Assembly (NCBI GenBank): GCA_965237525.1
Contig: CBDEFO010000003.1
Coordinates: 128,001 to 192,000 of the forward strand
Source of the DNA: Candidatus Latescibacterota bacterium
GTDB lineage: Bacteria > Latescibacterota > CBDEFO01
Length of the DNA stretch: 64,000 nt
Reading direction: 5' to 3'
The position numbers and the translations under genes are program-made. Below are positions 15,376 through 61,714 of the stretch, in pieces. Under the pieces are notes generated by a model that was given only the letters and a program-made list of their open reading frames with translations, searched no databases and was not told where the DNA came from. Position 1 is the stretch's first letter, and each line of letters opens with the position of its first letter.

Positions 15376-15433
15376 AGTAGACAGTAGTCAGTAGACAGCA
15401 TACAGGAACTACCCCTATCTCTGACTGCCTACT
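15376..15433 (+). repeat. heptamer-armed palindromic element (family A)
   Basis: AGTAGAC AGTAGTC AGTAGAC AGCATAC-AGG core-...GACT GCCTACT; a second degenerate copy lies at ~15477-15510. Confidence 0.8.
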
Positions 15434-15519
15434 GGGCTAACACTCCGGTCGCCCCTGCTAAACTTTTCGTGGGTGGGTAGATGGGCCCCGTCAACTGTTT
15501 GCTGTCTCCTTGTTATATG

Positions 15520-15906
15520 TTACACCCTCCGTCTTTTGGGGGGACGACATCCGTTATGAGGAATAGGTGTTACGTCCCTTATTGCTGTGATTTCAAGTCC
15601 GGCGGTCTGAAGCGCTCTAACTGCCGATTCTCTGCCTACACCTGGACCCTTTACCCAGACCTCTACTCTCCTTAAGCCTAAGGCCATAGCTTCCTTAGCA
15701 GAAGCATCCGCTGCCAGTGAAGCTGCGTAAGGTGTGCTCTTCCTTGAGCCCTTAAATCCCACCTTACCGGTGGATGCCCACGCTATCACATGGCCGTCCC
15801 GGTCTGTTAGAGTGACTATGGTATTGTTAAAGGTCGCCTTTATGTGAGCGATCCCATCGGCATCCACCTTCTTGGCTTTCTTTGATCTCCTCTCAGGCGG
15901 TGACAA
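15520..15906 (-). CDS. rpsK: 30S ribosomal protein S11
   Basis: [30 protein letters not shown] start. Confidence 0.98.
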
Positions 15907-15918
15907 ATCTCATTCTCC

Positions 15919-16287
15919 TCATCTTTTTCCCTTTATAATCGGGCGTCTTGGACCCTTGCGCGTCCTGGCATTTGTATGTGTCCTTTGACCTCTGGCCGGC
16001 AATCCCCTGCGGTGCCGCAAACCCCGATAGGTACCGATGTCCATAAGCCTCTTTACATCCATGTCCACATCGGCCCGCAGGCTCCCTTCGACCTTATAAT
16101 TGGACTCAATAGCCGTCCTGAGCTTATTAATCTCCTCCTCCGTAAGGTTTACGATTCGGGTATCTGGATTTAAACCTGCCTGGCCTAAAATCTTATTGGA
16201 ACTGGATCTGCCTATACCGTATATATAGGTCAAAGCTATCTCCACCCTCTTATCCCTGGGCAAATCAACGCCAGCTATCCTTGCCAA
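15919..16287 (-). CDS. rpsM: 30S ribosomal protein S13
   Basis: [23 protein letters not shown] start. Confidence 0.98.
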
Positions 16288-16443
16288 GATGAATCCCCTC
16301 CTTAAAGTTGAAGTTCAACCTGCTTTATAACCCGCTGCAAAGTTGCCAATCGCTCTATAACCTGGCGGGCTATTCAGTTTCCGCAAAAGCGTCTCTACGC
16401 CTACGCTTCGACAGGATCAATGTGGTGTTTAAACGACACTCAC

Positions 16444-16593
16444 TTACTTCTTTCTCTGCGCAGAGCTGAATGACCCTGGGCCCTGTCTCTGCTTATGCCT
16501 TGGATTGGCGCTGCATATAACCCTTAAGACACCTTTCCTTTTTATTATTTTGCAGGAGGTACATCTCCTCCTTATAGACGCCTTAACCTTCAT
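16444..16593 (-). CDS. rpmJ: 50S ribosomal protein L36 (Zn-binding type) with 11-aa C-terminal extension
   Basis: Manual translation [49 protein letters not shown]; below the ORF-track cutoff. Confidence 0.95.
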
Positions 16594-16616
16594 AGATTCT
16601 TATCTTTCCTATAGGA

Positions 16617-16758
16617 CCCCAAAGAGGCGGCATACGCACTGCAGAGGCAGCGTAGGCACTGCGTGAATTCCTCCATTCGTCCTTGCACGGAGCACGAAGT
16701 ACCAGCAACATTGTCAACAGCCCACGAAATGGAGAAGTGGTCGGAGAACTTTTTCGGG
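16617..16758. repeat. MITE-like element (family B), copy 1
   Basis: CCCCAAAGAG...GGCACTGCGTGAATTCCT...CGGAGCACGAAGT...AGAACTTTTTCGGG; matches 21250-21365. Confidence 0.7.
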
Positions 16759-16775
16759 AAAACTTGTCATAGACG

Positions 16776-16994
16776 TCACTTGTAGCGATACACAATCCTG
16801 CCTCTGTCCAGGTCGTAAGGAGACAGTTCTACAGTCACCTTGTCCCCTGGAAGGACACGGATAAACTTTATTTTCATCTTCCCGGATGTGTATGCCAGGA
16901 CGGTGTGTCCGTTTTCTAACTCCACCTTGAACATATCGTTTGGGAGCGCCTCGATAGCTGTTCCTTCAACCTTGATTGCCTCTTCCTTTGGCAT
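16776..16994 (-). CDS. infA: translation initiation factor IF-1
   Basis: [32 protein letters not shown]. Confidence 0.97.
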
Positions 16995-17018
16995 CAAAAA
17001 CGCCTCCGTTATCGAACG

Positions 17019-17660
17019 TTATCGAACAGAAAGACTCTTTAAGATCCTATCGTGAACCTGTTCTATCGTGCCTTCACCATCAATGTCCAGAAGATTCCCC
17101 CTGTCTCTGTAGAACACATTTAAAGGCTCAGTTTTCTCGTGATAGACCTTGAGTCTGGTTACCACCGCTTCTTTTATGTCATCCGTTCTGGACGTCACCT
17201 TTCCCCCGCATAGATCGCATACATCGGTAGATATAGGATCTTTGACGGTGTAATCTTGGCGGCAGACCTCGCACTGCCTGCGACATTCAAGCCTCTCTAC
17301 CAGAATATCCTCAGCGACAGAGATATTGAGAACGAACTCTATTTTCGACCCCAAATCATTTAAGATACGCTCCAGACCCTGGGCTTGATTGATGGTTCTG
17401 GGGAAGCCATCTAACACAAATCCATCCTTACAGCCAGCGTTCAGGAGCCTTTCTCTTACAATATCCAGCATAACATCGTCGGGAACCAGTTCCCCTTTAT
17501 CTGCGTAAAAACGTGCTTTAAGACCCAATTTTGTCCCTATTCTGGCAGCTTCCCTTAGAATATCTCCTGTGGATATCTGGGGTATACCCAGAACCTTGCA
17601 CACTTTCTTAACCTGAGTTCCCTTTCCGGAGCCAGGCGGTCCCAATAGAACAAGAATCAA
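17019..17660 (-). CDS. adk: adenylate kinase (Zn-lid type)
   Basis: GPPGSGKGTQ, LDGFPRT, CxxC...CxxC lid. Confidence 0.97.
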   Translation of the reverse strand: MILVLLGPPGSGKGTQVKKVCKVLGIPQISTGDILREAARIGTKLGLKARFYADKGELVPDDVMLDIVRERLLNAGCKDGFVLDGFPRTINQAQGLERILNDLGSKIEFVLNISVAEDILVERLECRRQCEVCRQDYTVKDPISTDVCDLCGGKVTSRTDDIKEAVVTRLKVYHEKTEPLNVFYRDRGNLLDIDGEGTIEQVHDRILKSLSVR

Positions 17661-17663
17661 ACC

Positions 17664-18971
17664 CTATCTCCTGCCCTTCAGTCTGCCCTTTTTCATAAAG
17701 CCGTCGTAGTGGCGCATAAGCAGATGAGATTCCACCTGCTGAAGGGTGTCCAGCGCCACTCCCACTATGATCAAAAGACCCGTACCGCCGAAAAACTGTG
17801 CAAATTTTTGGGCGACATTCATAGACTTTGTTACAAAGAATGGGAATATGGCTATAGCGGCTAAAAAGAGCGCCCCTGGTAGCGTAATCCTCGTTAAAAT
17901 TTGGTCTATGTACTCGGCTGTCCTCTTGCCGGGTCTTATGCCCGGAATAAAACCGCTCCGGCTTTTCAGGTTGTCCGCCGTATCCACAGGATTAAAGACG
18001 ATAGCGGCGTAAAAATAGGTGAAAAAGACTATCATAAGTCCGTAGAGGAACCAGTAGAAGGGCGAATCAGTCTCAAAAAATTCCATCAGCCAGCTTATAA
18101 ATTCGTTTCCCTGGAAGAAGGTTCCGACAGTAGAAGGTAAGAACATAATAGCCTGGGTAAAGATTATGGGTATAACCCCGGCTACATTTATCTTCATAGG
18201 AAGATGCGTGCTCTGTCCGCCATATATTCTTCTCCCCACGATCTTCTTGGCGAACTGGATCGGGATTCTCCTTTGACCCTGGGTTAGCAGCACCACCATG
18301 CCTACTACGCCTACCAACAAAGCGCAAAGAAGTAGCTCAGGGATAATGCCCTTATCGTTTATTCGGAAATAGTTGAATTCCTCCTTCAGCGCATAGGGAA
18401 AATCTGCCACGATACCTATGAATATGATCAGAGATATGCCGTTTCCTATGCCTCTTTCTGTGATCTGCTCTCCCAACCACATGATAAGTACGGTCCCTGC
18501 CGTGATAGTCAACATCGTCAAAAGCGTAAACACGGGGCCCGAATGCGGTACTACCCGTCCTTCTCCAATATTCTGCCAGTAGACAGCCAGTCCCAGAGAC
18601 TGCGCCGCCGCCAACAGCACTGTGCCGTATCTGCTGTACTGATTTATCTTATTTTGTCCCTCTCTTCCCTCCTTCTGAAGCCTCTGGAAATAGGGCATCA
18701 CGGAACCTAAAAGTTGCAATATAATCTGAGCGCTGATATAGGGCATGATCCCGAGGGCAAATATAGTCGCCTTGGAGAAATTTCCCCCTGCGAACATGTC
18801 GTAAAGCCCGAATATCCCCGACGTTGGCGCAAACTCCAAAAGAGCACCAGAATCGATCCCCGGAATTATCACTAATCCCCCGGACCTATATATTACCAGT
18901 ATAGCTAGGGTAAACAGGATCCTCTTTCTCAACTCTGGGATTTTGAAGCTATTTTGAAAGCTCTTCAGCAA
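17664..18971 (-). CDS. secY: preprotein translocase SecY
   Basis: FALGIMPYISA, GIGNGISL, IPGIRPG, GGTGLLI. Confidence 0.98.
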   Translation of the reverse strand: MLKSFQNSFKIPELRKRILFTLAILVIYRSGGLVIIPGIDSGALLEFAPTSGIFGLYDMFAGGNFSKATIFALGIMPYISAQIILQLLGSVMPYFQRLQKEGREGQNKINQYSRYGTVLLAAAQSLGLAVYWQNIGEGRVVPHSGPVFTLLTMLTITAGTVLIMWLGEQITERGIGNGISLIIFIGIVADFPYALKEEFNYFRINDKGIIPELLLCALLVGVVGMVVLLTQGQRRIPIQFAKKIVGRRIYGGQSTHLPMKINVAGVIPIIFTQAIMFLPSTVGTFFQGNEFISWLMEFFETDSPFYWFLYGLMIVFFTYFYAAIVFNPVDTADNLKSRSGFIPGIRPGKRTAEYIDQILTRITLPGALFLAAIAIFPFFVTKSMNVAQKFAQFFGGTGLLIIVGVALDTLQQVESHLLMRHYDGFMKKGRLKGRR

Positions 18972-19406
18972 CTATATCACCTCAATGCTTCCGCCAGCTT
19001 GGGTTATCTTCTTCTGAGCTGACTCTGAAAAGGCATTGGCTTTGACGTTTAAGGCCTTATCTATCTTTCCGTCTCCCAGTATCTTGACGGGTTTGTTGAG
19101 ACTGCGTATCAGCCCTGCCATCTTCATAGTCTGGGGAGTAACGTCCCCGTCCAGGCGCGACATATCCTGCACGTTGACTATCTGAAAAACCACCTTAAAT
19201 CTGTTGTTAAAGCCCCTCCTGGGCAGTCGCCTTTGCAGTGGCATCTGGCCACCTTCAAACCAATTTCTTGATTTGGCTCCAGACCGGGATTTTTGGCCTT
19301 TTTCACCTCTTCCAGCAGTTTTTCCGTGACCCGACCCTACTCCCCTTCCGACCCTTTTTCTATTCTTGACTGCACCTTTGGGTGGCTTCAGACTGTCCAA
19401 TTTCAT
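18972..19406 (-). CDS. rplO: 50S ribosomal protein L15
   Basis: RVGRG.GSGHGKT, FEGGQMPL.RRLP. Confidence 0.98.
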   Translation of the reverse strand: MKLDSLKPPKGAVKNRKRVGRGVGSGHGKTAGRGEKGQKSRSGAKSRNWFEGGQMPLQRRLPRRGFNNRFKVVFQIVNVQDMSRLDGDVTPQTMKMAGLIRSLNKPVKILGDGKIDKALNVKANAFSESAQKKITQAGGSIEVI

Positions 19407-19414
19407 TTTTGGCT

Positions 19415-19597
19415 TTATCCTTTGACTTCTAGGACTTCGACTAGATGGGACACCTTACTTATCATTCCCCTTATCTGGGGAGTATCTTCTTTGAGTACCG
19501 TTCCCCTCAACCTCTTTATCCCCAGAGCCCGCATCGTTCGCTTTTGGGTCTGATTCCTTCCGATTGTGCTTCTTTCCTGTGTTATTCTTAATTTCAA
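19415..19597 (-). CDS. rpmD: 50S ribosomal protein L30
   Basis: RSTIG...ALG...[12 protein letters not shown]; position in the spc operon. Confidence 0.95.
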
Positions 19598-19609
19598 GGG
19601 CTACGTTCC

Positions 19610-20125
19610 TTATGCTCTATGATGCAATGTCCTCAGGTCAATGTCGCGCTCAAGGGCAACGCTTTCCGGGTCTCTGAGCACCTTCAATGCCTCCATAGTT
19701 GCTTTGGCTGCGTTGTGCGGATTCTTCGACCCCAAAGATTTGCTCAGCACGTTTTGAATCCCTGCAGCTTCCAGGACAGCTCTTATTGATCCTCCTGCTA
19801 TCACACCCGTACCTGGGGAAGCTGGCTTCAAAAACACCTTTCCGGCTCCGAACTTCCCAACGATCCAGTGTGGAATAGTACCGTTCACCAGGGGTATGAT
19901 GTACATATTCTTCTTTGCCGCCTCTGTACCTTTTCTGATCGCCTCTGAAACCTCACCTGCTTTTCCCAATCCCAAGCCTATGTGTCCGTTCTTATCCCCT
20001 ACGACAATTAAAGTGTTGAAGCAGAACCTGCGTCCCCCCTTCCTTACGTGAGCCACCCTATGGATAGGAGGAACTACAGCCTCAACCAATTCTCCCAAAT
20101 CATCTGATTTTACGCGACGCGCCAA
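19610..20125 (-). CDS. rpsE: 30S ribosomal protein S5
   Basis: [23 protein letters not shown]. Confidence 0.97.
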
Positions 20126-20257
20126 AACTATTCTCCTTTAGAAGAAAATGAAGTGTTGGGTCAAGATAGTATGGACAAGATTATACACGGCAGAAAGGGA
20201 GAAGGCGTCCTGCTCACTGTCTGACTAGAAAGAATAACTGTTCTAGCGTCTACCTCT

Positions 20258-20632
20258 TTAGAACTCCAAACCGCCTTCCTTTGCACCTTCTGCCAACTCC
20301 TTGATCCTGCCGTGATACAGATATCCACCCCTGTCAAACACAACTTGGGTGATTTTTTGTTCTTGGGCCTTTTCGGCCAGAAGTCTTCCTACTTCTTTAC
20401 TTATTCCACATTTTCCGTTCTCTATTTTATTCATATTCCTGATCTGGGCACACAGGCTCGACACTCCCAAAATCGATCTTCCTTTTGTATCATCTATTAA
20501 CTGAGCCTGGATATTCTTCAGGCTCCTGCTGACTGAGAGCCTCGGCCTTTCAGTTGTTCCGGAAACCTTCCTTCTGATGCGCTTGTGCCTCTTTAGTCTT
20601 GCGAGCGTCCTTTTGATATTCTTATCCTTCAA
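20258..20632 (-). CDS. rplR: 50S ribosomal protein L18
   Basis: RPRLSV.RS, VFDRGGYLYHGR. Confidence 0.97.
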   Translation of the reverse strand: MKDKNIKRTLARLKRHKRIRRKVSGTTERPRLSVSRSLKNIQAQLIDDTKGRSILGVSSLCAQIRNMNKIENGKCGISKEVGRLLAEKAQEQKITQVVFDRGGYLYHGRIKELAEGAKEGGLEF

Positions 20633-20643
20633 TCCTATCTCCT

Positions 20644-21228
20644 TTATATTGCAGTCTTGCCAGCTTTCCGTCGTACGAACTCACCGTCGTACCTGATTCC
20701 CTTCCCTTTGTATGGCTCAGGTGGTCTCAAGAATCGGATATTCGCTGCCGTTTGACCTACTACCTCTTTGTCTATGCCACGGACGGTGATAATTGTGACT
20801 GTGCCCTCCACCTCACCACCTACTATATTCAGCTGACTGGGACTTGCTGTTTGGACCTCAAATTCGATGTCGTCAGGGGCGAGAACTGTGACCGGGTGGG
20901 AAAACCCTAATAGGAGCCTCAAGTTTTTTCCCTCTACGTCGGCTCTATATCCTATTCCTATCACATGGAGTTTCCTTTCAAATCCCTGAGTGACCCCAAA
21001 GACAGCGTTTGCCACCAAGGAGCGAGTCAGTCCCTGGAGCGCCTTCCCTGCTCTATCGTCAGAACGAGGGTAAACCTCGACTCGACCGTCCTTAAGCTTA
21101 AGCTCCACTTTGCTGTTCAACTTTACGGTCAACTCACCCTTTGGTCCCCTGACCATAGCCCGATCTTTGTCTACGTTTAAACTCACTCCCTGGGGAATAT
21201 CGACAGGTTTTTTGCCTATCCGCGACAC
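20644..21228 (-). CDS. rplF: 50S ribosomal protein L6 (with ~15-aa insertion)
   Basis: GTG start at 21228 (SRIGKKP); RPPEPYKGKGIRY. The ORF-track N-terminal extension comes from a repeat. Confidence 0.96.
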   Translation of the reverse strand: MSRIGKKPVDIPQGVSLNVDKDRAMVRGPKGELTVKLNSKVELKLKDGRVEVYPRSDDRAGKALQGLTRSLVANAVFGVTQGFERKLHVIGIGYRADVEGKNLRLLLGFSHPVTVLAPDDIEFEVQTASPSQLNIVGGEVEGTVTIITVRGIDKEVVGQTAANIRFLRPPEPYKGKGIRYDGEFVRRKAGKTAI

Positions 21229-21249
21229 TGAAATATCCTTTCTCGGGGT

Positions 21250-21365
21250 CCCCAAAAAGTCGGCGTGGGCACTGCGTGCATTTCTACTACCCCTTTCCGT
21301 GTGTAGTGACGAGTACGCGATGACAAAGCGCGGAGCGCACGAAGTGAGCGAAGAACTTTCTGGGG
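21250..21365. repeat. MITE-like element (family B), copy 2
   Basis: terminal inverted repeats CCCCAAAAAGT / ACTTTCTGGGG (10 of 11 match); internal GGCACTGCGTGCATTTCT and CGGAGCGCACGAAGT. Confidence 0.75.
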
Positions 21366-21377
21366 CGAAAAGTAATA

Positions 21378-21776: not shown

Positions 21777-21854
21777 AGAGATCGTCCTCTATTTGAGAAG
21801 TTCCGTTTAAGCTTAACTACCATGTTGACTATTTCTGAATCTGTCTACATAAAC

Positions 21855-22040
21855 TTACCAGCTTGCTTTGGTAACTCCAGGGATTTCCCCCTCCAGGGCG
21901 AGTTCCCTGAAGCATATGCGGCATATCCTAAACTTCCTCATATAGCCCCTTGGCCTGCCGCATCTTATGCATCTGTTTCGATGCCGCGTGCTGAACTTGG
22001 GCTTTCTTTTTGCTTTGACCATGAAAGCCTTACTTGCCAT
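21855..22040 (-). CDS. rpsN: 30S ribosomal protein S14 type Z
   Basis: 61 aa, [21 protein letters not shown]. Confidence 0.97.
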
Positions 22041-22055
22041 AAGAAACCCTCTATT

Positions 22056-22598: not shown

Positions 22599-22615
22599 AG
22601 TCTATACCCTCTCCT

Positions 22616-25003: not shown

Positions 25004-25024
25004 TGTGCATCTCCTTATAAAGCT

Positions 25025-25243
25025 AGTAGACAGGCCATCTCATCCCCTCCCCTATGCCCGACCCCAATAGATTTAATTGTGGGCTCAATCGGGGATTACT
25101 TCGGTTTTCCCTCCTAGCAATGAAATGACAAAAGGCAAGAGCAGGTCATAACTGAAGGTCTCACCAGTGAGCAGACTGTCAGTTTGAACCAAGGCCCAGA
25201 GTCTTCATCCCAGAGTGCAGCCAAGGGTCTGCGAAGCAATCTC
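25025..25243. repeat. composite repeat cluster (family A, D and C fragments) in the rplV-rpsC spacer
   Basis: AGTAGACAGGCCATCTCATCCCCTCCCC; CCCCAATAGATTTAAT...CAATCGGGG; GATTACTTCG...GCAATGA; GCGAAGCAATCTC. Confidence 0.6.
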
Positions 25244-25673: not shown

Positions 25674-25776
25674 CTGATATACCCTCACCGCCTAAACTGC
25701 AGTAGAAGGAGGCGTTGCCTCTCGTCCTTGTGTGTCGTCTACTTGCAGTTGCCTTTCGCTTTTGTTGTCCACTTGT

Positions 25777-29986: not shown

Positions 29987-30006
29987 CCTTAACCCTCCTT
30001 AAGGAA

Positions 30007-30176
30007 GTAGCCAATAGTCAGCAGACTGGGACACCAGGTCTCCTCCCTGCATGCTGTCTACCTGTCTTTACCTTCGCTTAGCCTGCTTGCTGTCTACTGT
30101 TCTGTTTCCTTGTCCTTTATTGTTTTCAAACTTCTGTTCTAGTCGCCGACAGATTCCACGATTGAATCTATCGGGG
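30007..30176. repeat. family A element plus family D palindrome in the fusA-tuf spacer
   Basis: AGTC AGCAGAC TGGGACACC...CTCCTCCC...GCTGTCTAC...GCTGTCTACT; CCACGATTGAATCTATCGGGG at 30156-30176. Confidence 0.7.
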
Positions 30177-33294: not shown

Positions 33295-33446
33295 AGACAG
33301 TAGGTAGTAGACAGGGCACCGCTTCCCCCTCCCCATTTACTGTCTCCTGTCTTTATGCTGCTTGCCGATTACTATCGGGTACGGAGAAAGGGGATTGCCT
33401 GTATGCTGTCTATTGTTTGCTGTCTACTTGTTTATGCTATCCACTT
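33295..33446. repeat. two family A elements in opposite orientation in the rpoC-rpsL spacer
   Basis: AGTAGACAGGGCACCGCTTCCCCCTCCCC...TACTGTCT; then CCTGTATGCTGTCTATTGTTTGCTGTCTACT. Confidence 0.75.
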
Positions 33447-37614: not shown

Positions 37615-37680
37615 TTAAGATACCCCCTAAATAAGTACGTAGTAGACAGCGCACGTCCTCAATTGTTCACTGAGTACTCT

Positions 37681-42772: not shown

Positions 42773-42836
42773 AATAGACAGCATACAGAGAAGGGAGGAG
42801 ATACCCCTGTCTACCCCCGATTGAATCTATCGGGGG
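42773..42836 (-). repeat. family A element carrying a family D palindrome
   Basis: AATAGAC AGCATAC AGAGAAGGGAGGAGATACCCCTGTCTA + CCCCCGATTGAATCTATCGGGGG (42814-42836). Confidence 0.8.
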
Positions 42837-42856
42837 TTACTTATCATCTGTCAAGA

Positions 42857-42894
42857 ATCCCCACGCTCCGTGTGCATCCCCACACTCTGTGTGC
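42857..42894 (+). repeat. 19-nt tandem direct repeat
   Basis: ATCCCCACGCTCCGTGTGC / ATCCCCACACTCTGTGTGC. Confidence 0.7.
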
Positions 42895-43150
42895 GGAATC
42901 TTATCTTTACCGAGTGATCTTTTGATATCATAGCTAATAATTGCGAATTCTCTGCGGGTTGAGATTATCAGGGGATTTACGATAGCTTTCTCTTTTTCTT
43001 AATACAATTTCCCCGCTGAGACCTGCCCGAGCACCTCCCAGGATAAGAGATTCGAACGGTTCTCCCTCATCTTGGAAGTAGCTTCAATCCAAAGCATGAT
43101 CCGTTTACATTGAGGGGTTGCTTATTGTCCGCGAAGATCTCATTTTCTCT

Positions 43151-43592
43151 TTATCTAAGTCCAGATTGCCAGTATTCCGCCTGAAATAACCTGAAATAAT
43201 AAGTAGAACTAAAATGTAATGTATTAATAAAGTAGGGTTTTACCGGTTTGTCTTCCCACAAAACGCTGGCCAGTAGAACTGGGCAGATGAATCCAATCCA
43301 AACCAAAAAACCCGCCTCTACTCCTTGAAGTGAAGAGGTTGCATGCGTATACGCAATAATGTTGGCTAGTACGTAACTCATTAATAATACTCCAATAAAC
43401 GCTGACACATAAGATTTGCCCATTCCCTTTGCTTTTTCTTTTTCCAGCTCCTCTTCACTCATGCCAATAAGTCTTACCCATGCATTTCCGAACAGAATTG
43501 GAGAGTACCATAATGCTCCTATTACGCTTGGTGTACATAGAAATAAGCGATACTATGAAAACTGCTGGAAGGTTAATTTCTGGTAGTGGCAT
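43151..43592 (-). pseudogene. DUF1761-family membrane protein, frameshifted
   Basis: MPLPEINLPAVFIVSLISM (ATG 43592), frameshift, then VIGALWYSPILFGNAW...MGKSY. The 3' end is disrupted, including a 10-nt tandem duplication CCTGAAATAA at 43180-43199. AT-rich. Confidence 0.75.
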
Positions 43593-43659
43593 CTTATTTT
43601 AGTGTGTTGGGTGCTGGACTTTAAGGAGCTTTCGGGATATAGGTCTCTACCCTGAATCT

Positions 43660-50004: not shown

Positions 50005-50192
50005 AGTGGACAGCATACAGGGATGGTAGATAGTCCAAGTGAGATAGCAATGACGGTTTATTTGCTGCTGAGACCTTCTGTCATTGCCAGCGGTGAAACC
50101 CCGACCCCGAAGGAGCCCCCGATAGATTCAATCGGGGGGAAGCGGAACCAATCTCAAGGGAGGGAAGAGCGGTGCCCCTGTCTACTTGCTGT
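50005..50192. repeat. nested repeat cluster (families A, C, D) extending into the smpB 3' end
   Basis: AGTGGAC AGCATAC AGGG; GAGATAGCAATGAC; GTCATTGCCAGCG...[CCCCCGATAGATTCAATCGGGGG 50116-50138]...CCAATCTC; GGGAGGGAAGAGCGGTGCCCCTGTCTACT. Confidence 0.75.
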
Positions 50193-50627
50193 GAGGCCCC
50201 TTTCAATCTCCATCTGCGCTGCTTTTCTAGCCATATCCTCGCGCTTGTCGAACACCCTTTTGCCCTTTGCCAGTGCAAGCTCGACCTTAGCTTTTCCTGA
50301 GCTGTTGAAATATACCTTCAGCGGGACAAGCGTTAGCCCGCGCTCTTGGACCCTTCCGATGAGCTTCTTTATTTCGTATTTGTGCAGCAACAATTTTCTG
50401 ACCCTTTCAGGATCGTGGTTGTGCACTCCGCCCTGTTCGTATGCGCTTATGTGCATATTGTAAAGCTGTGCCTGGCCCTTTTCGACCCTTGCATAGCTGT
50501 CCTTTAAGTTGGCTTTCCCCTGTCTTAAGGATTTTACCTCAGTGCCTTTTAGTTCTATTCCGGCTTCAATTGCGTCGAGTATAAGGTATTCGTGCCGAGC
50601 GCGCCGGTTTTGTGTTATGATCTTCAC
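50154..50627 (-). CDS. smpB: SsrA-binding protein SmpB
   Basis: NRRARHEY, EAGIELKGTEVKSLR, RKLLLHK.EI, KGK..FDKRE. Confidence 0.97.
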   Translation of the reverse strand: MKIITQNRRARHEYLILDAIEAGIELKGTEVKSLRQGKANLKDSYARVEKGQAQLYNMHISAYEQGGVHNHDPERVRKLLLHKYEIKKLIGRVQERGLTLVPLKVYFNSSGKAKVELALAKGKRVFDKREDMARKAAQMEIERGLTASRQGHRSSLP

Positions 50628-50839
50628 CTTCTAAATATATCCTTCACAGCTTCCACCAACGTATCGAGTTCTCTTTCCAGCGTAAAGAACCCCACAGATC
50701 CGTCGTAATTTAAGTCGGATATAGCCGCAAAGACATTCTTGTAGTTTATGTCTCCCGTTCCTGGCTAGTGTCTTCCGGGGACGTCGGCAGCGTGGAAGTG
50801 TCCTATCCTACTGATATTTTCTCGTATCGTGGATATTAG

Positions 50840-52358
50840 AAGCCTTGTGAAATAGTTATGTCCCAGGCAGCGTCTGAAGCGCCGATTATGGGTCAAAGAG
50901 TAGCATATCGTATCGTTTTGCTGTGGAATAAGCAAAATAGTCTTATCAGAGTTCTGGTCAGCAAGGAACAGGAGCTGTTTGAAGAACAGGATGCACTGTC
51001 TTTGACAGACAGGGCACACATAGACGCTTTCCCCCTTCTTATGAAAGATACAAGCCTCTTGAGATTCTGTACTGTTGCAACAAGATTCAACTGTTCATTC
51101 AGTGAGGCTGGTCCTCTGTAACGGGCTCGTCCCATACCGTGTTGTTGCCTGGCTTCAGCAAAGATATGTTCACTGCGTTTACGGAGTCTCCGGGAGAGTT
51201 TGTAGTCAGCTGTTAATGAGATAGACCGTGCATGATTTCTGGCTTTCGCCTCTCGCACTTTTCTATCCCGTTCGGCCTGAATATGTGCTGGATTTGTCTT
51301 GTTTTTCCATGTAGGAATCGGTCCAATCTTCTCATCGGCTCGCAGAGGAATATGGGGTATGATTCCCCGGTCAAGTACATCAGCGATAAAATTACCAGAA
51401 CCGTAACCGGTATCGGCACTAAGTGTCTGAATGTCTTTGGGCATGGTCTATGTTTCAAGGTCATCTACCATCTTAAGGGCACTTTCGGGCTCTGCTGTCC
51501 CTGTCGCCTGCGTGCCCTGAGTCTCAAGGATTACTCTGCTTTTTGTGTCGATCAGATCATGGCCCATAAACGAGAGAAAAGCCCCTTTGCCCTTCGATTT
51601 GCTGTATAAGCGCGCGTCGGGGTCTGTAGTCGAACGGTGTGTTTGGTTCGTCCACTTTTCACCATGAAAGTCTTTATCCTGAGGATGCCCGGACCTACCC
51701 TTTGTCTTATCACCTTCAAAACCGATTCCCTTGAGATAATCATCAAGAGAAACAGGGGGTTCTATCGGCTCAATACTTTTCACTGAAGCATCAGCTTGTA
51801 TCTGAGTGCCGTCGACACTAAGGTGTTTACCGCTCACAACACCGACATCTATGCAACACTGGACTACCTGACGCATTATCCGTTCAAACAACCCACTGGA
51901 TGCCCACTTGTGATTGCGAAGCTTGTTGATCGTGCTCCTATCCGGAACCGCATCATCAAATGTCTGATGACAAAACAACCGATATGCCGCATGCATCCCC
52001 ACTTCCTGACAGAGCCGATTCTCACTCAAATTATACAGATAGCCAATAAGGATCATTCGAACAACTAATTCAGGATCAATACCGGGTCTGCCATTGTCAG
52101 GGCAATAACAATCTGATACAACGTCTCGTACAAATGAAAAATCAACTGCCTCATCAATCTGACGAAGGATATGATCCTCGGGAACTAAATCCTCCATCTG
52201 AAAATAGTGAAACATCGGATTTGTCTGTTCCTGCTTTTGTGGGGTCATTGTTTCCTCCATATATAATATTATCAATAACATAATATAATACATCGGAGCT
52301 GCTTTATCAATGCTTGTTCTATACTACTTTCTGAATCTAAGGGTTTTTCACAAGGCTT
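50840..52358 (-). mobile_element. IS1182-family insertion sequence, 1519 bp
   Basis: 13-bp perfect TIRs AAGCCTTGTGAAA at both ends; 4-bp TSD TTAG at 50836-50839 and 52359-52362; removing it restores the host reading frame locally. Confidence 0.92.
50893..52248 (-). pseudogene. IS1182-family DDE transposase with one in-frame amber stop
   Basis: LVPEDHILR, GRPGIDP, VDGTQI.ADAS, TTDPDAR, ADTGYG, EHIFAEAR. The two track ORFs share a frame, separated by TAG 51448-51450 + ACC. Confidence 0.88.
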
Positions 52359-52924
52359 TTAGATTGCCCTCTGTAATCTGCTGATGGTAGACGTCGTAGA
52401 GCAATATCACATCAGGACTCATTGCGTCGTCTACAATCTCTACACCCTGTTGGGTTGTGGAGAGATAATACCCTTATAGTTGACGAGAATGTTTAAAGGT
52501 TCCACGATCAAAGTTGCTCCCTTATCCTCGGCGTAAGGAACGATTTCTTTTAGAAGATCTACTATGTATTTGTGCTGTCGAGATCTGCTCAGATCAGGGT
52601 TCTCCTGCCCTACTTCGACTATGAGATTTTTGCAATTTAACTCTACGGACGCGTCTATTGAGTCTTGTGTCTCATCAATGAAGTCTTCTCTTTTGGAAGG
52701 ATCGACCAGCGATCCGTCGGAGTTGTCAAAAGCGGCTATCTCCATGCCAGATACTGAAACCGTTGACTTGAGGGCATCCAGATCCTTATCACTCCATCTC
52801 AAAACTCGAATGCCTTAAGACCAGCAGAACCCAGCTTTCTTATCCTCTCCTTGATCGGAAGGTGCTTATAGAAAGACTCTATGCACCCTGAAAGTCTGAT
52901 CATTTGATCTCTCCGTGTGAGACC

Positions 52925-55159: not shown

Positions 55160-55264
55160 AAATGAATTACCCCATTTGATTATCTTGGATTCCAAAAACG
55201 ACAGAATTGGGATCGCTTCGCTTTGCTTTTATGACGTTGCTTGCCTTTTGCCTTCCGTGCACTT

Positions 55265-55954: not shown

Positions 55955-55971
55955 CTTTTAATCCTCACCGA

Positions 55972-56745
55972 TTAAAATCGTTCAAAGACGAGTTGCCGCA
56001 ACCCCCATTCAATCTCGCTGGTTTCATTTTCATTCGTTGTCATCTTTTTCAAGTCATCTTCCAACCCAGCAATCATCTCCCTCGCATTACTGTCTCGAAT
56101 GGAAGGCTGATGCTTCCAGGACTGGATATTCATATAGAACATTGTAGCTGCTTGATGTCTCGAAACGGACAAGCGTCTTACCTGACTCGATCGTTTCTTC
56201 AGGAGATCTGTTCTCTCCAGACTGTTTAAGATCGGCCCTATATAAAGCTGATTCGATTGATCCACCAGCATGGCCTCAACTATATCAAGATAGATAGTGA
56301 ATATATCATTCTTGGTATGAATCCACTCTACCTCTTCTATAAGCAAGAGGCCCTTGTGTTGCAACTGAGAAGCCCATTTTTCGATAATGTAGAAAGGATC
56401 CTTTAAATGAGTTAGTAGATAGCGGCAATAGAGAAAATCGCTTGGCCCCACGGGGAATGGCAGGGAGGTGATGTCATGAAGATAGAATGTGACCTTATCT
56501 GTCTTGCCCTGTTCTGCCAAGGAAATGAAATGTGCTGAGTTATCAAGCCCCACAGCCTGTCTACACCCAGTAAGCTTTGCTAAAAAGTGAGTTGTATAAC
56601 CTGGGCCACATCCCAGGTCTAAAGCTAATTGGGGCCGATAGTTGATCACATCAACAATGAAATCTTGTGTCGTTTCGGCATATACTTCAGCGAGATATTT
56701 AAGTCGCTGAGCTGCTAATTCCGTGTCTGTAAATAGGTATTTCAC
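55972..56745 (-). CDS. class I SAM-dependent methyltransferase
   Basis: LDLGCGPG, GLDNS, YCRYLLTHL; more AT-rich than its neighbours. Confidence 0.85.
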   Translation of the reverse strand: MKYLFTDTELAAQRLKYLAEVYAETTQDFIVDVINYRPQLALDLGCGPGYTTHFLAKLTGCRQAVGLDNSAHFISLAEQGKTDKVTFYLHDITSLPFPVGPSDFLYCRYLLTHLKDPFYIIEKWASQLQHKGLLLIEEVEWIHTKNDIFTIYLDIVEAMLVDQSNQLYIGPILNSLERTDLLKKRSSQVRRLSVSRHQAATMFYMNIQSWKHQPSIRDSNAREMIAGLEDDLKKMTTNENETSEIEWGLRQLVFERF

Positions 56746-56799
56746 TAAAAATCATCTGATTATGATGGCGCTTAACCACTGGTATCCGTAATTATCCTT

Positions 56800-57117
56800 C
56801 TATCGCTTGAGTTTCTTTATTTCCATTGCCAAAATCAGCAGACCTAATCCCAGAATGATCGTTCCCACGATGCTATGGAAATAGCTGATCCGGGCGTGGA
56901 AAGCTCCGGCCGACTCACCCCAGGGGACGCTCATTTGGCCGGCAGCTATTTTATAAAACACATTATCTATCCCAGAACCTATCACATCCGTCCACACTAT
57001 ATAGACCACAAAGAGTATAAGTCCCTTGAGACGCAGTGTAGCGTAAGCCCAGATAGCCGTCGCCAGAAGAGCGATCTTCAATATAAGGACCACAATTGCT
57101 ATTACAGAGTCGAACAT
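56800..57117 (-). CDS. small hypothetical membrane protein (3 TM)
   Basis: ATG 57117 after SD AAGGGGG; three hydrophobic segments; the longer ORF-track start lies within repeats. Confidence 0.65.
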   Translation of the reverse strand: MFDSVIAIVVLILKIALLATAIWAYATLRLKGLILFVVYIVWTDVIGSGIDNVFYKIAAGQMSVPWGESAGAFHARISYFHSIVGTIILGLGLLILAMEIKKLKR

Positions 57118-57136
57118 AGCATCTACCCCCTTAATA

Positions 57137-57267
57137 AGTAAACAGTAATCAGTAGACAGGAGCCCATCCTCCCCCCTACGACCGTCATTGCGAGCAAAGC
57201 GAAGCAATCTCGTAGACAGTAGACGGGGAGGAGTAGGCATGCCCTGTCTACTAACTACTGTCTACTA
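57137..57267. repeat. composite of two family A elements around a family C fragment
   Basis: AGTAAAC AGTAATC AGTAGAC AGGAGCCC..CCTCCCCCC; GTCATTGCGAGCAAAGCGAAGCAATCTC; GTAGAC AGTAGAC GGGGAGGAG...CCCT GTCTACT AACTACT GTCTACT. Confidence 0.85.
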
Positions 57268-58659
57268 TTTTATATCTTTCCACATTGCTCGAAACGGCTT
57301 TTTAGCAAATGCCGGAAAATCCCTCTTATCCGTCCAACCTGAAATTGGTAGTGGGAGCCGTTTTATCCATCCGTCCTGCGAAAACAGGTCAAAAAGGAGT
57401 CTGGAAGCCCATGAGCCCAGACGATAAAGGACGCTTGAGGACAGGCCCATCGCCCACAGCTTAAATATGAACCTTTCGCCCCAGGATGCGATCTTCCTCT
57501 TTACAAGCTGATTCCTCCACGTAATAAGCATCCTTGGAATCTGTATTCCCACAGGGCAGACATCCTGACACGCACCGCATAGAGAAGAAGCATGCGGAAG
57601 TTCAAAGAACTCCTCATCTCCTTCGTAAAACGGGGTCAGCACTGAACCTATCGGTCCCGAATAGACGCCTCCATAGGCGTGACCTCCGACTTTTCCGTAC
57701 ACAGGACAGACGTTAAGACACGCCCCGCACCTTATGCAATATAAAGACTCTCTAAAAGGGCTCCCCAAGATCTGCGACCTGCCGTTGTCCATAACGATAA
57801 GATGAAACTCTTTTGCGCCGTCCAACTCATCCGGAGCCTTAGGACCGGTTACAAAAGATACATATATCGACATCTTTTGACCGGTTGCACTCCTGTTTAC
57901 AAGCTTTAAGAACACAGGAACGTCTTCCAACTTCGGTAGAACCTTTTCCATGCCCATAATCGCTACGTGAACGTCAGGCAGAGTCATGGTCATCCTGGCG
58001 TTCCCCTCGTTCGTGATGACCAAAACCGTCCCTGTCTCGGCGATAGCGAAGTTCACTCCCGTGATCCCCATATCGGCGTTTTTGAATTTTTCCCTCAGAA
58101 CTTTCCTCGCTTGGCCTGCGATCGCATCGGCTAAAGGGGGAAATTCTTCTCCAAATTCTTGAGAAAATAGCTCTGCAGTCTGTTCCTTCGTCTTGTGGAT
58201 CATAGGAGCCACAAGATGAGATGGTCGCTCCCCCGCAAGCTGAATGACGAAATCCCCAAGATCTGTCTCTGAAACCTCAACTCCCACACTCTCCAAAGCT
58301 CCGTTGAGTTCGATCTCTTCGGTCGTCATAGACTTCGATTTCACCACAGACTTGATTTTCTTCTCTTTAGCTATCTCAACGACAATCTTCCTCGCCTCAT
58401 CGGCATCTGAGGCCCAGTGGACAACTCCCCCGGCACGAGACACATTTTTTTCAAGCTCATCTAAATATCTATCCAGACCCTCGATAGTCTTCCTCTTAAT
58501 CTCCCTTGCCCTCTTAACCAAGGCCTTCCCGTCGGGAATCTCAGCAAAGGACTTTATCCTCCCATCCACAAACTTATCAGTCGCTCTCTTTACCGCAACC
58601 TGAAGAAGCTCGTCCTTGATAGCTTCTGAGCTTTCCTGTGTAAAGTTATGTCTGTTCAA
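57265..58659 (-). CDS. lutB: lactate utilization Fe-S protein B
   Basis: KSKSMTTEE, ETDLG, NEGN, CIRCGACLNVCP, SLCGAC.DVCP. Confidence 0.93.
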   Translation of the reverse strand: MNRHNFTQESSEAIKDELLQVAVKRATDKFVDGRIKSFAEIPDGKALVKRAREIKRKTIEGLDRYLDELEKNVSRAGGVVHWASDADEARKIVVEIAKEKKIKSVVKSKSMTTEEIELNGALESVGVEVSETDLGDFVIQLAGERPSHLVAPMIHKTKEQTAELFSQEFGEEFPPLADAIAGQARKVLREKFKNADMGITGVNFAIAETGTVLVITNEGNARMTMTLPDVHVAIMGMEKVLPKLEDVPVFLKLVNRSATGQKMSIYVSFVTGPKAPDELDGAKEFHLIVMDNGRSQILGSPFRESLYCIRCGACLNVCPVYGKVGGHAYGGVYSGPIGSVLTPFYEGDEEFFELPHASSLCGACQDVCPVGIQIPRMLITWRNQLVKRKIASWGERFIFKLWAMGLSSSVLYRLGSWASRLLFDLFSQDGWIKRLPLPISGWTDKRDFPAFAKKPFRAMWKDIK

Positions 58660-58670
58660 GTATAGCTCCC

Positions 58671-58720
58671 AGCAAACAAGCAGACAGTAGACGGGGGCAC
58701 CTCACCCCTCCCTGTCTACT
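58671..58720 (+). repeat. family A element overlapping the lutA stop codon
   Basis: AGCAAAC A AGCAGAC AGTAGAC GGGGGCACCTCACCCCTCCCT GTCTACT. Confidence 0.85.
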
Positions 58721-59456
58721 CTTTAGTTGACTCTACACCTCTCCCTTTTACTAAAAGCTCCGCAATATGCATTACCCTTGTCTCGATCCCCCTTCTTTTC
58801 AATCCTCCTGCTAAATTCATCATACAGCCCGCATCGTTTGCAATTACCACTCCTGCCTTACATCCCGCAATCGAGTCAGTCTTATCCTTCAACATAGCAC
58901 CGGAGATCTCGGGGTACCTCACGGAGAACGCCCCACCGAATCCACAGCATCTATCCATTCCCTCCATCTGGATGTACTCTGCGCCTTTCACGCACTCTAT
59001 CAATCTGACCGACTCATCGGTAAGACCTATTGCCCTTTGATGGCAGGAAAAATGATAGGTCACCTTCCCTTCAAAGTGCGCATTCACATCCTCAACACCG
59101 AGGACATTTACCAGAAAATCGGCAAATTCATAGCACTTTTTCCCCAACTCTTCGGCTTCTCTTTTCATCCTGTCGTCGTCCTCAAAGAGCAGAGGATAGT
59201 ACTCCTTCACCATAGCGACGCACGACCCCGAAGGAGCCACGACATACTCACTCTTTTCAAAGACCCTTATCATCCTCTTGGCAAGCCTTCTCGTCTCATC
59301 CCAAAAACCGTTGTTGAAAGCGGGCTGACCGCAGCACGTCTGGCCCTTTGGAAAATCCACGTCCACGCCCAGGCCCTTCAGCACTTTTACAGAGCACACT
59401 CCTGCCTGAGGATAGAACAGATCAGCCAGACAAGTGATAAAAAGCGAGACTTTCAA
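58716..59456 (-). CDS. lutA: lactate utilization protein A (CCG domains)
   Basis: FITCL.D, QTCCGQP, SGSC, CCGFGG.FS, D.GCMM. Confidence 0.93.
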   Translation of the reverse strand: MKVSLFITCLADLFYPQAGVCSVKVLKGLGVDVDFPKGQTCCGQPAFNNGFWDETRRLAKRMIRVFEKSEYVVAPSGSCVAMVKEYYPLLFEDDDRMKREAEELGKKCYEFADFLVNVLGVEDVNAHFEGKVTYHFSCHQRAIGLTDESVRLIECVKGAEYIQMEGMDRCCGFGGAFSVRYPEISGAMLKDKTDSIAGCKAGVVIANDAGCMMNLAGGLKRRGIETRVMHIAELLVKGRGVESTKE

Positions 59457-59515
59457 TCTATCTCCCGTTCAGTTTTAAAGTCTAAGCTACTGCCTCATAA
59501 ACGACCTTAGATACT

Positions 59516-59640
59516 TCACCTCCTGCGGGCCAGCAGCCTTAGCGGGCTCGTTTTTCCCTCTAACGCTATTGACACAAATCCGTTGTAGCACACGTTCCGC
59601 AATAGTGGGAATATCCTGTCATAATCTAAGACCTCATCTT
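59516..59640 (-). pseudogene. C-terminal remnant of a sugar phosphate isomerase/epimerase (TIM barrel) gene
   Basis: LDYDRIFPLLRNVCYNGFVSIALEG resembles the family C-terminal D(Y/W)..I...L...GY.G..SIE.EG; no N-terminus present. Confidence 0.4.
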
Positions 59641-59643
59641 TTC

Positions 59644-60516
59644 TTAAGACCTTATCTTTTCTAAATTTGCGTCCTCCAGTCCCCTTGAAAACATGTACAT
59701 TCCTCCAGAAAAAACAAACGCGGCTGTGCTCACAAGGGAAAGCGGAGTGTGAACGACCTCCTCTGTGCAAGGAATAACATTGTAACCTGGGATAGCGAAC
59801 GAATCCCCAGCATTTAAGAGCACTATCGGAAGGAGATTGAACAGACCGTGAGCCAGAATCGAAGGGAACACCGAATTTGCCTTCAAAGCTATAAATCCCA
59901 GGGTCAACCCCGCCGGAAATGCTCCGAAAGCTTGCCAGGGAATCATGTGAAACACGGCGAAAAATAGGCTCGCATAGAAAACCCCTTTGAGTCTACCCCT
60001 ATTCTTAACCAGTCCGTATTGGAAGAGTCCTCTGAACAACAGTTCCTCTCCCACAGGAGCCACAATGGAAAAGAAAAATACCAGTTCCAGAACCCCTGTC
60101 CAGCTATTTGCTGTCATAAGGTCCATAAACATCTGGGTCACAAAATCGGGCGCAGGGAAAAACTCCTGTATTATATTATCCACTTCGCTTATCAACACCG
60201 ATAAAGACAAGGAGATAAGCACTACGGGCCAAAGTATCCTCAATGGAAATTCTCTTAAGCCCAAAACCTCCCAAACCGTCGCATGACCCCTTTTTCTCAA
60301 GCCCAAACCGATCAAGAAAGCTATAGTCCCCAAGCTGATCAGCAGAAGCTTCAGGTCATCCGTCAGAACAGGAATAGGGAAAAGCATCAACCCCAGTACG
60401 GTAGATGCACCCCAACCTATAAATATGAGAAATATGCAGTTTGATACGTCAGGATAGACTTTATCTCTAACTTCCACCATCGGTCTATCTTCACCAGTAT
60501 CCCTGTCCTCGTCCAA
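59644..60516 (-). CDS. CPBP (Abi/CAAX) intramembrane metalloprotease
   Basis: APVGEELLFRG, FAVFH, ILAHGLFN; SD AGGAGG. Confidence 0.9.
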   Translation of the reverse strand: MDEDRDTGEDRPMVEVRDKVYPDVSNCIFLIFIGWGASTVLGLMLFPIPVLTDDLKLLLISLGTIAFLIGLGLRKRGHATVWEVLGLREFPLRILWPVVLISLSLSVLISEVDNIIQEFFPAPDFVTQMFMDLMTANSWTGVLELVFFFSIVAPVGEELLFRGLFQYGLVKNRGRLKGVFYASLFFAVFHMIPWQAFGAFPAGLTLGFIALKANSVFPSILAHGLFNLLPIVLLNAGDSFAIPGYNVIPCTEEVVHTPLSLVSTAAFVFSGGMYMFSRGLEDANLEKIRS

Positions 60517-60725
60517 GATTTAACCTCCTGTAAGTGCTATTGTTCCGACCTATCATATTTATAAGATCTGGGAGATATTTGGATACTGGAGCCGAACAGA
60601 CTGAGGCTTGTCTAAAGATAGAAAGATGAGAACCTTGCAGATGAACTGCCAGATGAACTGATAAAGGAACAGAGCCATTTCCGTAAGATCTGGCAGGGCA
60701 GATAAAAGAGAAACTACAAAGGCTA

Positions 60726-61448
60726 TCACCTGGTCTGGATCGTCCCCTCGTGGATATCGATCTCGTCCCTGTTCCTTACCCGGTCAATAGCTCCATCTCT
60801 CAGATCAACTACCCTGTCGGAGGCTACTAACATCTTGTGGTCGTGAGTGTTAGTTACAACTGTCGTTCCAATTTCCTTACTCATCTCCTTCAACGATTCG
60901 ATGATCTCGGCGCCCGTTTGGAGATCCAGATTTCCCGTGGGCTCATCCGCCAGGATGATCTTGGGATCGTTAGCCATAGCCCTTGCAATAGCGACGCGCT
61001 GTTGCTGGCCGCCTGATAGCTCAAAGGGTTTATGGTGCAGGCGATCTCCAAGTCCCACTTGTTCAAGCTTCCGAGCTGCTTTCCGGTCATATTCCTCCCT
61101 GCTTAACCCGGCAAAGACCATAGGAAGTGATACATTTTCCAGCGCCGTCATAACGGGAATCAGGTTGAACGTCTGGAAGATATAGCCGATGCTGTGACAG
61201 CGAAGGTATGCAATATGGTATTGATCGAGGCCGCCGATGTCCGCCCCACCGATGAGCACCTTCCCTTTTGACGGTCGGTCCAGCGCACCGATCATGTTGA
61301 ACAGAGTAGTCTTTCCTGAGCCGGAAGGACCCATAATAGAAAGATATTCCCCCTGATACACCGTAAGATCGATACCCTTTAAAGCGTCCAGCTTAACGTC
61401 GCCCATTGTATATGTCTTCCACACATCATAAATTTCTATGATATTCAT
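60726..61448 (-). CDS. ABC transporter ATP-binding protein (LolD/MacB-like); no permease adjacent
   Basis: GPSGSGKTT, LSGGQQQRVAIARA, ILADEPTGNLD. Confidence 0.93.
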   Translation of the reverse strand: MNIIEIYDVWKTYTMGDVKLDALKGIDLTVYQGEYLSIMGPSGSGKTTLFNMIGALDRPSKGKVLIGGADIGGLDQYHIAYLRCHSIGYIFQTFNLIPVMTALENVSLPMVFAGLSREEYDRKAARKLEQVGLGDRLHHKPFELSGGQQQRVAIARAMANDPKIILADEPTGNLDLQTGAEIIESLKEMSKEIGTTVVTNTHDHKMLVASDRVVDLRDGAIDRVRNRDEIDIHEGTIQTR

Positions 61449-61560
61449 GTTCTCCTCCTTGACGTTTTTCAACAGATGAAAATAACGGTAAAAGTTCAGT
61501 AGGGATCTCTAAAGGACATCATTTCAGCGTAGCGCCAAGGTAAGCCTTTTCCCAAAAAGT

Positions 61561-61625
61561 GTGGCGGGACAGACATTCCTGTCTGACATGGATACTTTGA
61601 GGACAGACAAGAATTCCTGTCCTAC
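61561..61625. repeat. REP-doublet-like element
   Basis: GGGACAGACATTCCTGTCTGAC...GGACAGACAAGAATTCCTGTCCTAC. Confidence 0.6.
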
Positions 61626-61650
61626 TTTTGGTATCCCGAGCCCCTAAAGG

Positions 61651-61714
61651 GACGGGAGAGGTGCCCCTGTCTACCCCCATAGATTCAATCAGAGGTCTAC
61701 GCTTTGCTGTCTAC
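61651..61714 (-). repeat. family A element carrying a family D palindrome
   Basis: GGGAGAGGTGCCCCTGTCTA CCCCCATAGATTCAATCAGAGG TCTAC...GCTGTCTAC. Confidence 0.75.

Follow-up and report, generated by a model that had tools for sequence, protein, structure and literature searches.

Intergenic repeats built from tandem 7-nt units occur in several groups of bacteria, and the STRR repeats of cyanobacteria represent one such class. Other described units are GGGAATC in Xanthomonas and GGGGA(T/C)T in Nostoc, and heptamers of this kind display biased strand and position as well as inverted pairs (PMC4692102). The TAACTGA repeats of Beggiatoaceae, Cyanobacteria and Bacteroidetes occur within operons for ribosomal proteins, where copies lie upstream of S4, L3 and fusA, and a mobile origin for them has been left open (PMC4679880). 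In Coxiella, an intervening sequence (IVS) of the 23S rRNA carries tandem GACAGAT heptamers, variable in number, in front of an S23p open reading frame (ORF); this ORF is decaying, the element has been called selfish and horizontally acquired, and its excision by RNase III has been shown (PMC4990558). Repetitive extragenic palindromes (REPs) of the GTAG type have also been defined, and REP dimers are inverted doublets (PMC3733652). Here we analysed a repeat with the unit AGTAGAC in 64,000 nucleotides from a Candidatus Latescibacterota bacterium (contig CBDEFO010000003.1, positions 128,001–192,000; hereafter the window), where it occupies spacers of the ribosomal gene supercluster and its flanks. 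Because the same repeat brackets a four-helix-bundle gene in a sister species, we consider that the spacer elements are probably gene-less leftovers, that is, ORF-deleted relics of a heptamer-armed cassette encoding a protein of this family (PF05635/TIGR02436).

The AGTAGAC family shares with the published heptamer repeats its period-7 arrays between co-directional genes, sense past stop codons and antisense before start codons, together with inverted pairs, indels in steps of seven and copies in ribosomal operons. As in that class, the tandem 7-nt units are mainly intergenic and over-represented, with a strand bias and few copies between divergent genes. It differs in its unit, which is not of the G-quadruplex type, in a conserved asymmetric core, and in that Shine-Dalgarno sites are kept. 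It is also linked directly to a four-helix-bundle gene, and the terms “four helix” and “intervening” are absent from the TAACTGA report (PMC4679880). The Coxiella IVS has in common with the sister-species cassette the Pfam family of the ORF, the heptamers in front of it and its decay. Unlike the IVS, the window copies and this cassette lie between protein genes, in mRNA spacers, and not in an rRNA gene; nearly all copies here are without an ORF, and RNase III excision is a result for the IVS, whereas the terminal stem of our elements is predicted only. REP/REPIN-RAYT systems are likewise small, intergenic and present in many copies; their units form inverted doublets and stand in opposite orientation on the two sides of a gene, and insertion sequences (ISs) use them as targets. 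They are distinguished from the present family by its tandem heptamer arms, its asymmetric core, a bracketed gene that is not a transposase, and the lack of a Y1 match in the two genomes that we compared, namely the window's own (G000, 96.6% complete) and that of the congeneric sister species (G001, 98% complete, one contig). Finally, cassette proteins resemble Avd, the accessory protein of diversity-generating retroelements, in weak matches to the models NF033474 and PF22296 that fall below cut-off. Unlike in those retroelements, no reverse transcriptase was matched in G000, and the two reverse-transcriptase genes of G001 (L234 and L235) are located more than 1 Mb from its cassette.

Tandem heptamers are known both within ribosomal operons and next to an S23p-type ORF (PMC4679880, PMC4990558). 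What the window adds is the core-bearing family, a site found in three states and an effect on stop codons. The original prediction had called the repeats possibly undescribed, which holds for this sequence family and for its cassette link but not for heptamer repeats in ribosomal-protein operons as such (PMC4679880). The literature consulted, chiefly open-access main texts, did not yield a general connection of heptamer arrays with four-helix-bundle genes. The origin of intergenic heptamer repeats has been left open in that literature, and the species pair described below (empty site, mini element, full cassette) ties such repeats to the four-helix-bundle family; the comparison names testable parts, namely the protein, the arm and the core.

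Anatomy and distribution of the repeat

The repeat unit is polar. Tandem AGTAGAC-type heptamers, which form the arm, are followed by AGGG and a pyrimidine-rich core of ~20 nt, and a shorter inverted arm often closes the element. Between genes, the repeats take up the spacer from the stop codon as far as the ribosome-binding site. The profile consensus reads arm-AGGGCAC-n-CCCnTCCC, in which the core is asymmetric with only AGGG...CCCT around it. As had been suggested at the outset, we built a profile of the core (54 genome-wide seeds) and scanned G000, which gave 121, 157 and 199 matches at E ≤ 0.001, 0.01 and 0.1, respectively; the control, the reversed genome, gave none at E ≤ 0.01. Loose arms number 252 in G000 and 14 in the reversed genome. 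Within the window, 16 adjacent pairs of arm units compare with 0–4 in 30 third-order Markov simulations, and a repeat finder reports the arms as families D1, D2 and D10 and several inverted pairs. Checks against catalogued families showed a unit different from the published units compared and no RNA family on the copies, the Rfam scan of the window returning only five tRNAs. The repeat is a genome-wide family and is not special to the ribosomal supercluster: eight of the 157 copies at E ≤ 0.01 lie in the window (2.2 expected by length), four in the ribosomal cluster and four in the flank. The original proposal of a non-autonomous family tolerated in ribosomal operons was supported, and the family is dispersed.

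Arm positions were counted across G000 against genes from a simple longest-ORF caller, for which reason start positions are only rough; 98 of the 252 arms were scored as “in ORF”, and the arm scan dropped arms lying more than 12 nt inside ORFs. On these gene calls, 69 of 85 sense arms begin no more than 13 nt from the upstream stop codon (28 of the 85 overlap it) and 26 of 42 antisense arms end no more than 22 nt from the next start codon. In co-directional spacers, 16 pairs face inward (forward then reverse) and none outward. The core itself occurs on the mRNA in both orientations about evenly (68 versus 62). Copies are depleted between divergent genes (9/340 versus 162/2228, p 6e-4). Stop codons occur in every frame of the sense arm and are missing from the inverted arm.

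Matches to the arm dimer pattern number 147 in G000 and 136 in G001, and none of 59 other genomes from the phylum contains the exact dimer. It was found in many other phyla (at least 128 stretches), with an inverted arm no more than 200 nt downstream in 63 of 128 among the dimer matches listed. Five of these loci match the G000 core profile, including one in a genome of Nitrospinota that lies immediately upstream of rpsS, and viral contigs gave no exact match to a 27-letter core pattern.

The comparison with the sister species covered 2.4 of the 4.54 Mb of G001. Sites without unique flanks were not comparable; among the others, the core is present at the orthologous place in 69 of 84 G000 sites (184 in all) and 72 of 85 G001 sites (117 in all). 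The presence/absence check that had been proposed identified two clean whole-element differences among ~85 comparable sites, with no target duplication beyond at most 1–2 nt of ambiguity. At many other sites the outer arms are kept and the interior is exchanged, and 11 indels near shared cores measure 7 or 14 nt. Three things are established by comparison of the genomes: at one clean site whole units were gained or lost with no target duplication, interiors were exchanged between kept arms, and divergence was neutral. A MITE, or miniature inverted-repeat transposable element, of a DDE insertion sequence was considered and rejected, given that no clear target duplication was seen (≤1–2 nt ambiguity) and that the two IS families compared have ends unlike the arms.

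A four-helix-bundle gene between the arms

In G001 we identified a four-helix-bundle gene with these heptamers on both sides, an arrangement that the original prediction had named as one to look for. The gene (C1:2579539-2579850; PF05635, E 7e-30) is bracketed by arm and core on the left and by inverted core and arm on the right, and the flanks are predicted to form a 40-nt pairing around the ORF. It contains one internal stop, which may be a sequencing error, and its neighbours are presumably XerD-like and transporter-like, judging from their translations. At the xerD-side site G000 keeps the left arm with a different filling of 70 bp, a REP-like doublet. G000 has no match to TIGR02436, PF05635, PF01797, PF13366 (GxxExxY-type) or PF00078 (reverse transcriptase), and tblastn of this genome with two four-helix-bundle proteins returned nothing below E 0.04; G001 has no match to PF01797 or PF13366. 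To our knowledge the four-helix-bundle protein has no catalytic role, and the family is common with no role known to us.

We surveyed this family in other bacteria using one AGTAGAC-flanked protein as query, keeping 80 of 554 relatives (metagenome loci), 68 of them with both flanks; the four surveyed proteins tested match TIGR02436 above cut-off. A period-7 array stands on at least one side of the gene in 65 of the 68 loci, compared with 3 of 54 distal control windows, and inverted AGTAGAC-type arms were found in 25. A stricter motif set retained 20 of the 68, whose proteins show greater likeness to the G001 gene than those of the other 48 (median bits 116.5 versus 108.5, p 0.007 with kin not independent). 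Of the 80 loci, 5 contain a match to the core profile of G000. In folding of 19 of the 20 stricter-set loci, made without a shuffle control, at least 12 upstream bases pair with the downstream flank in 14. The unit and its inward arrangement are thereby established, as is the presence of the bracketed gene in G001 and in many other bacteria.

Cassettes and spacer elements can be compared directly at one junction between a MoxR-type AAA gene and a DUF58 gene (Pfam). At G001 C1:2938449 a 59-bp unit lies between the stop codon of one gene and the start codon of the next, without target duplication; in G000 the junction is empty, the stop and start codons standing 2 nt apart; and in the unrelated contig L308 it holds a complete four-helix-bundle cassette. 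In addition, 10 of the 20 stricter-set loci repeat the forward arm after the ORF, and deletion between such direct runs would leave exactly arm, core and inverted arm. The three-state site and these direct arms are compatible with mini elements arising from cassettes by ORF loss, but do not fix the direction. Downstream of L294/L295 we observed an arm, the first ~11 codons of a second, truncated four-helix-bundle copy and then an inverted arm; this second start may be a cassette caught after ORF deletion.

We propose that a cassette would insert at gene 3′ ends and that slippage or recombination between direct heptamer runs on either side of the ORF would delete the latter, giving arm-core-inverted arm. 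The leftovers would then alter by unit slippage and gene conversion, and would gather other small repeats and an IS. In operons the TAG-bearing 7-base unit would stop translation in all three frames, and we suggest that elements are tolerated because the arm stops all frames, the inverted arm is stop-free and the ribosome-binding site of the following gene is preserved.

Several observations weigh against derivation from such cassettes. Most copies are not directly tied to one, because G000 is without the gene and, in G001, a single broken gene stands beside upwards of 100 elements. In other genomes, only 2 of 95 examined ORFs beside AGTAGAC dimers (171 listed) match PF05635, and within the phylum PF05635 is matched in 29 other genomes, yet the exact arm dimer occurs in 0 of 59. 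The survey fractions, such as 65 of 68, are not unbiased because the 80 loci were chosen by likeness to one AGTAGAC-flanked protein. The xerD-side site is not polarisable, and the gene may have entered an existing pair of arms. Only two clean whole-element differences among ~85 sites indicate little recent mobility. The nearness of arms to stop and start codons is partly due to short ancestral spacers, and the removal of arms more than 12 nt inside ORFs also affects those counts.

The main rival explanation, which we consider unlikely, is that the arms form a self-standing repeat growing by slippage and gene conversion, with the four-helix-bundle gene as one of several passengers. Such a repeat would fit the kept outer arms and differing interiors at many G000/G001 sites (including the gene versus the REP-like doublet), the common 7- and 14-nt indels near shared cores, the insertion of an IS and a 21-bp palindrome into arms, and the ~160–200 copies of G000, which has no four-helix-bundle gene. 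It does not fit the finding that across taxa the gene lies nearly always within period-7 arms, that protein likeness follows arm type, or that the clean 59-bp difference contains a conserved, non-repetitive core and is not made by slippage alone.

The original prediction had noted that RAYT/HUH transposases mobilise GTAG-bearing palindromes. For the present family such mobilisation was not supported: no PF01797 match was found in G000 or G001, but a missing mobiliser proves little, because other REP-like hairpins in both genomes are also without a Y1 gene. A GTAG-type REP/REPIN family moved by a since-lost RAYT (Y1/HUH) transposase would account for the GTAG at the foot of the core, for inverted doublets as in REP dimers (PMC3733652) and for the clean 59-bp site without target duplication. 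Nevertheless, the core is asymmetric and not a 5–13-bp stem, the gene found inside the arms is a four-helix bundle, and the term “heptamer” is absent from the REP report (PMC3733652). We therefore regard this origin as very unlikely. A stand-alone GIY-YIG gene (L160, G000 C4:479893-480114) lies between inverted REP-like hairpins of another family. As a mobiliser of the heptamer element it was rejected, being flanked by that other repeat and not by arms, and it is a candidate mobiliser of that REP-like family instead.

Derivation from four-helix-bundle cassettes thus remains our preferred explanation. A broader extension of it is tentative and, on balance, doubtful: that the cassettes belong to a widespread class of transposase-less mobile element in which an Avd-like four-helix-bundle protein would recognise its cognate arms, the element would home to operon stop codons and act as an mRNA intervening sequence, closed by a long stem and stopping all frames, and ORF-deleted copies would be the source of the unexplained heptamer repeats of bacteria.

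Copies in the ribosomal operons

Genes in this region were named with NCBIfam (rpsD, rpsK, rpsE, rplR, rpsC, rplV, rpsS, rplJ and smpB) or by size and order (tuf, fusA, rpsL, rpoB, rpoC and rplA), and orthologues were placed by tblastn. The spacers rpsK-rpsD (161 nt), rplR-rpsE (132), rplV-rpsC (319), fusA-tuf (198) and rpoC-rpsL (174) have the lengths reported originally and are, as had been stated, long: in other families of the phylum rpsK-rpsD spans 22–104 nt (5 genomes), rplV-rpsC 9–72 and fusA-tuf 15–95 (6 genomes). The core profile has no match in the orthologous cluster spacers of six other-family genomes. All ribosomal-cluster copies compared are present in G001, and contigs of four sequencing runs gave no clean loss of any cluster element. 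Contigs from RNA libraries span three element spacers, although such contigs do not reveal transcription or transcript ends.

It had been proposed that hairpins of these elements act as mRNA processing or stability sites. Domesticated mRNA elements tuning the ribosomal operons through processing, stability or translation signals would fit the copies being fixed in both species at every cluster spacer compared, and two spacers being near unchanged (2/132 and 1/88). As a whole, however, the cluster's element spacers show 58 differences from G001 in 1120 sites (5.2%), no less than the synonymous rate (4.4%, from 147 of 3372 fourfold sites); other spacers differ at 18 of 461, shared cores at 178 of 3197, and rpsK-rpsD alone contributes 21 of the 58 differences. 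Two intact flank copies fold strongly (z −8.9 and −2.7), whereas the seven cluster spacers for the most part fold no better than shuffles (z −1.8 to +0.05, compared with −2.5 for an element-free control). A scan for promoters and terminators identified no terminator-like site on the coding strand of element spacers, and its promoter predictions were at chance level. Although the window has more copies than expected (8 versus 2.2) and a comparable function has been suggested for the TAACTGA repeats (PMC4679880), the even core orientations and the short spacers with which the operons of other families work also argue against domestication, which we judge highly improbable. The idea that the core serves as a Shine-Dalgarno sequence was not upheld either. 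The core lies at least 40 nt from the rpsC and rpsL starts with the inverted arm in between, and rpsD, rpsC, tuf and rpsL keep purine-rich Shine-Dalgarno sites of their own.

The supercluster copies look tolerated, not used, and probably drift neutrally between ribosomal genes. Spacer repeats of this kind in ribosomal operons should accordingly not be read as regulators, given the neutral-rate change seen here. They can nonetheless rewrite protein ends by supplying stop codons, as in SmpB.

Copies in the window and neighbouring observations

The repeat was present at all 12 positions that the original prediction had listed as clear copies. Several of the positions that it gave as separate copies, however, belong together as halves of a single composite (15376 with 15477, 33295 with 33400, 50005 with 50157, and 57137 with 57212). 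Among four positions described as degenerate, 15477 was supported, 37634 and 25698 retain one arm unit and one inverted unit, respectively, and 20166 was not confirmed. Core-profile matches in the window number nine (25021, 30014, 33299, 42774-42818, 50144-50190, 57144, 57210-57259, 58679 and 61644-61674), of which 57144 is weak (E 0.095); arm runs at 15376, ~33400 and 50005 contain 4, 4 and 2 units.

Table 1. Heptamer elements and arms located in the window
Feature	Position	Strand	Evidence and remarks
Four-unit heptamer arm, rpsK-rpsD spacer	15376..15403	+	Arm scan; two units fewer in G001
Decayed inverted partner arm directly past rpsK stop	15488..15517	-	77% to family D2 (15477 site); heptamers intact in G001
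rplR-rpsE spacer, 132 nt; possible highly decayed copy	20126..20257	.	Unconfirmed: neither profile nor arm scan matched 20166
Arm+core unit upstream of rpsC	25021..25061	+	Core profile E 2.5e-4
Decayed copy, rpsS-rplV spacer	25698..25747	.	One inverted unit; remainder by eye
Arm+core unit with inverted arm units, fusA-tuf spacer	30006..30098	+	Core profile and arm scan
Arm+core unit upstream of rpsL	33299..33351	+	Core profile E 1.8e-8
Inverted partner arm, four units, past rpoC stop	33401..33428	-	Arm scan
Decayed arm, rpoB-rpoC spacer	37634..37647	+	One arm unit; 70% to family D1
Complete mini element upstream of rplJ, made up of arm, core and inverted arm	42773..42818	-	Profile and arm scan; 21-bp palindrome at 42815-42835
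Arm, left end of smpB-amidase composite	50005..50018	+	Arm scan
Arm+core unit read in frame as smpB end (smpB 50154-50627)	50144..50190	-	Profile and arm scan
Best-preserved composite: inverted arm+core units flanking REP-like hairpin	57137..57266	.	One long predicted stem, z -8.9
Complete mini element between two Lut-type genes	58671..58729	+	Profile; folding z -2.7
Arm+core unit and outer arm, decayed 21-bp palindrome between	61644..61715	-	Profile and arm scan

On the mRNA, the arm in the rpsK-rpsD spacer ends 6 nt ahead of the rpsD Shine-Dalgarno site, and the LutB-type gene upstream of the best-preserved composite ends at a TAG stop inside the first arm of that composite. The C-terminal tail of SmpB is supplied by the element. 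In the translated alignment, the G000 protein ends ...SRQGHRSSLP*, and in G001, which has one heptamer more, an earlier TAG stop gives ...SRQ*, so that one heptamer accounts for a seven-residue difference between the species.

Other repeat families (the 21-bp palindrome, REP-like hairpins and a 1,302-bp IS) are nested inside arms. Copies of the palindrome in the window are located at 30156-30176, 42815-42835 and 50117-50137. Its family has 479 matches in G000 with two mismatches allowed; 107 of 160 comparable sites are common to G001 and 32 are small clean absences. The palindrome inserts into heptamer arms and into itself and is more mobile than the heptamer element. The 1,302-bp IS (e.g., G000 C8:509750-511052) has 47 paired copies with a 6-bp target duplication at TAG/TAC-like sites (28/47 perfect); 12 of the 47 are at heptamer arms, whereas for GTAG/CTAC sites the corresponding share is 3.0% overall and 9.6% outside ORFs.

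Further features of the window were also noted. RplQ (12843-13529) has 228 amino acids and matches a “sunset domain variant” model below cut-off. The rplA-rplJ spacer contains a single-copy 840-bp insert (42813-43654) with a DUF1761 gene in two pieces; it is absent in G001, where the spacer is 95 nt, and is bypassed by one contig of another sequencing run. An IS1182-like element at 50800-52400, split here into two ORFs and with ~140 copies in the genome, is absent at this site in G001, and a short tandem repeat at ~59627-59665 shows an expansion of ~180 bp in that species. Elsewhere in the two genomes, a MITE-like element of 230–250 bp with 4–5-bp target duplications varies in presence between G000 (C8:1067549-1067798 and C8:1062053-1062284) and G001 (C1:476958-477186).

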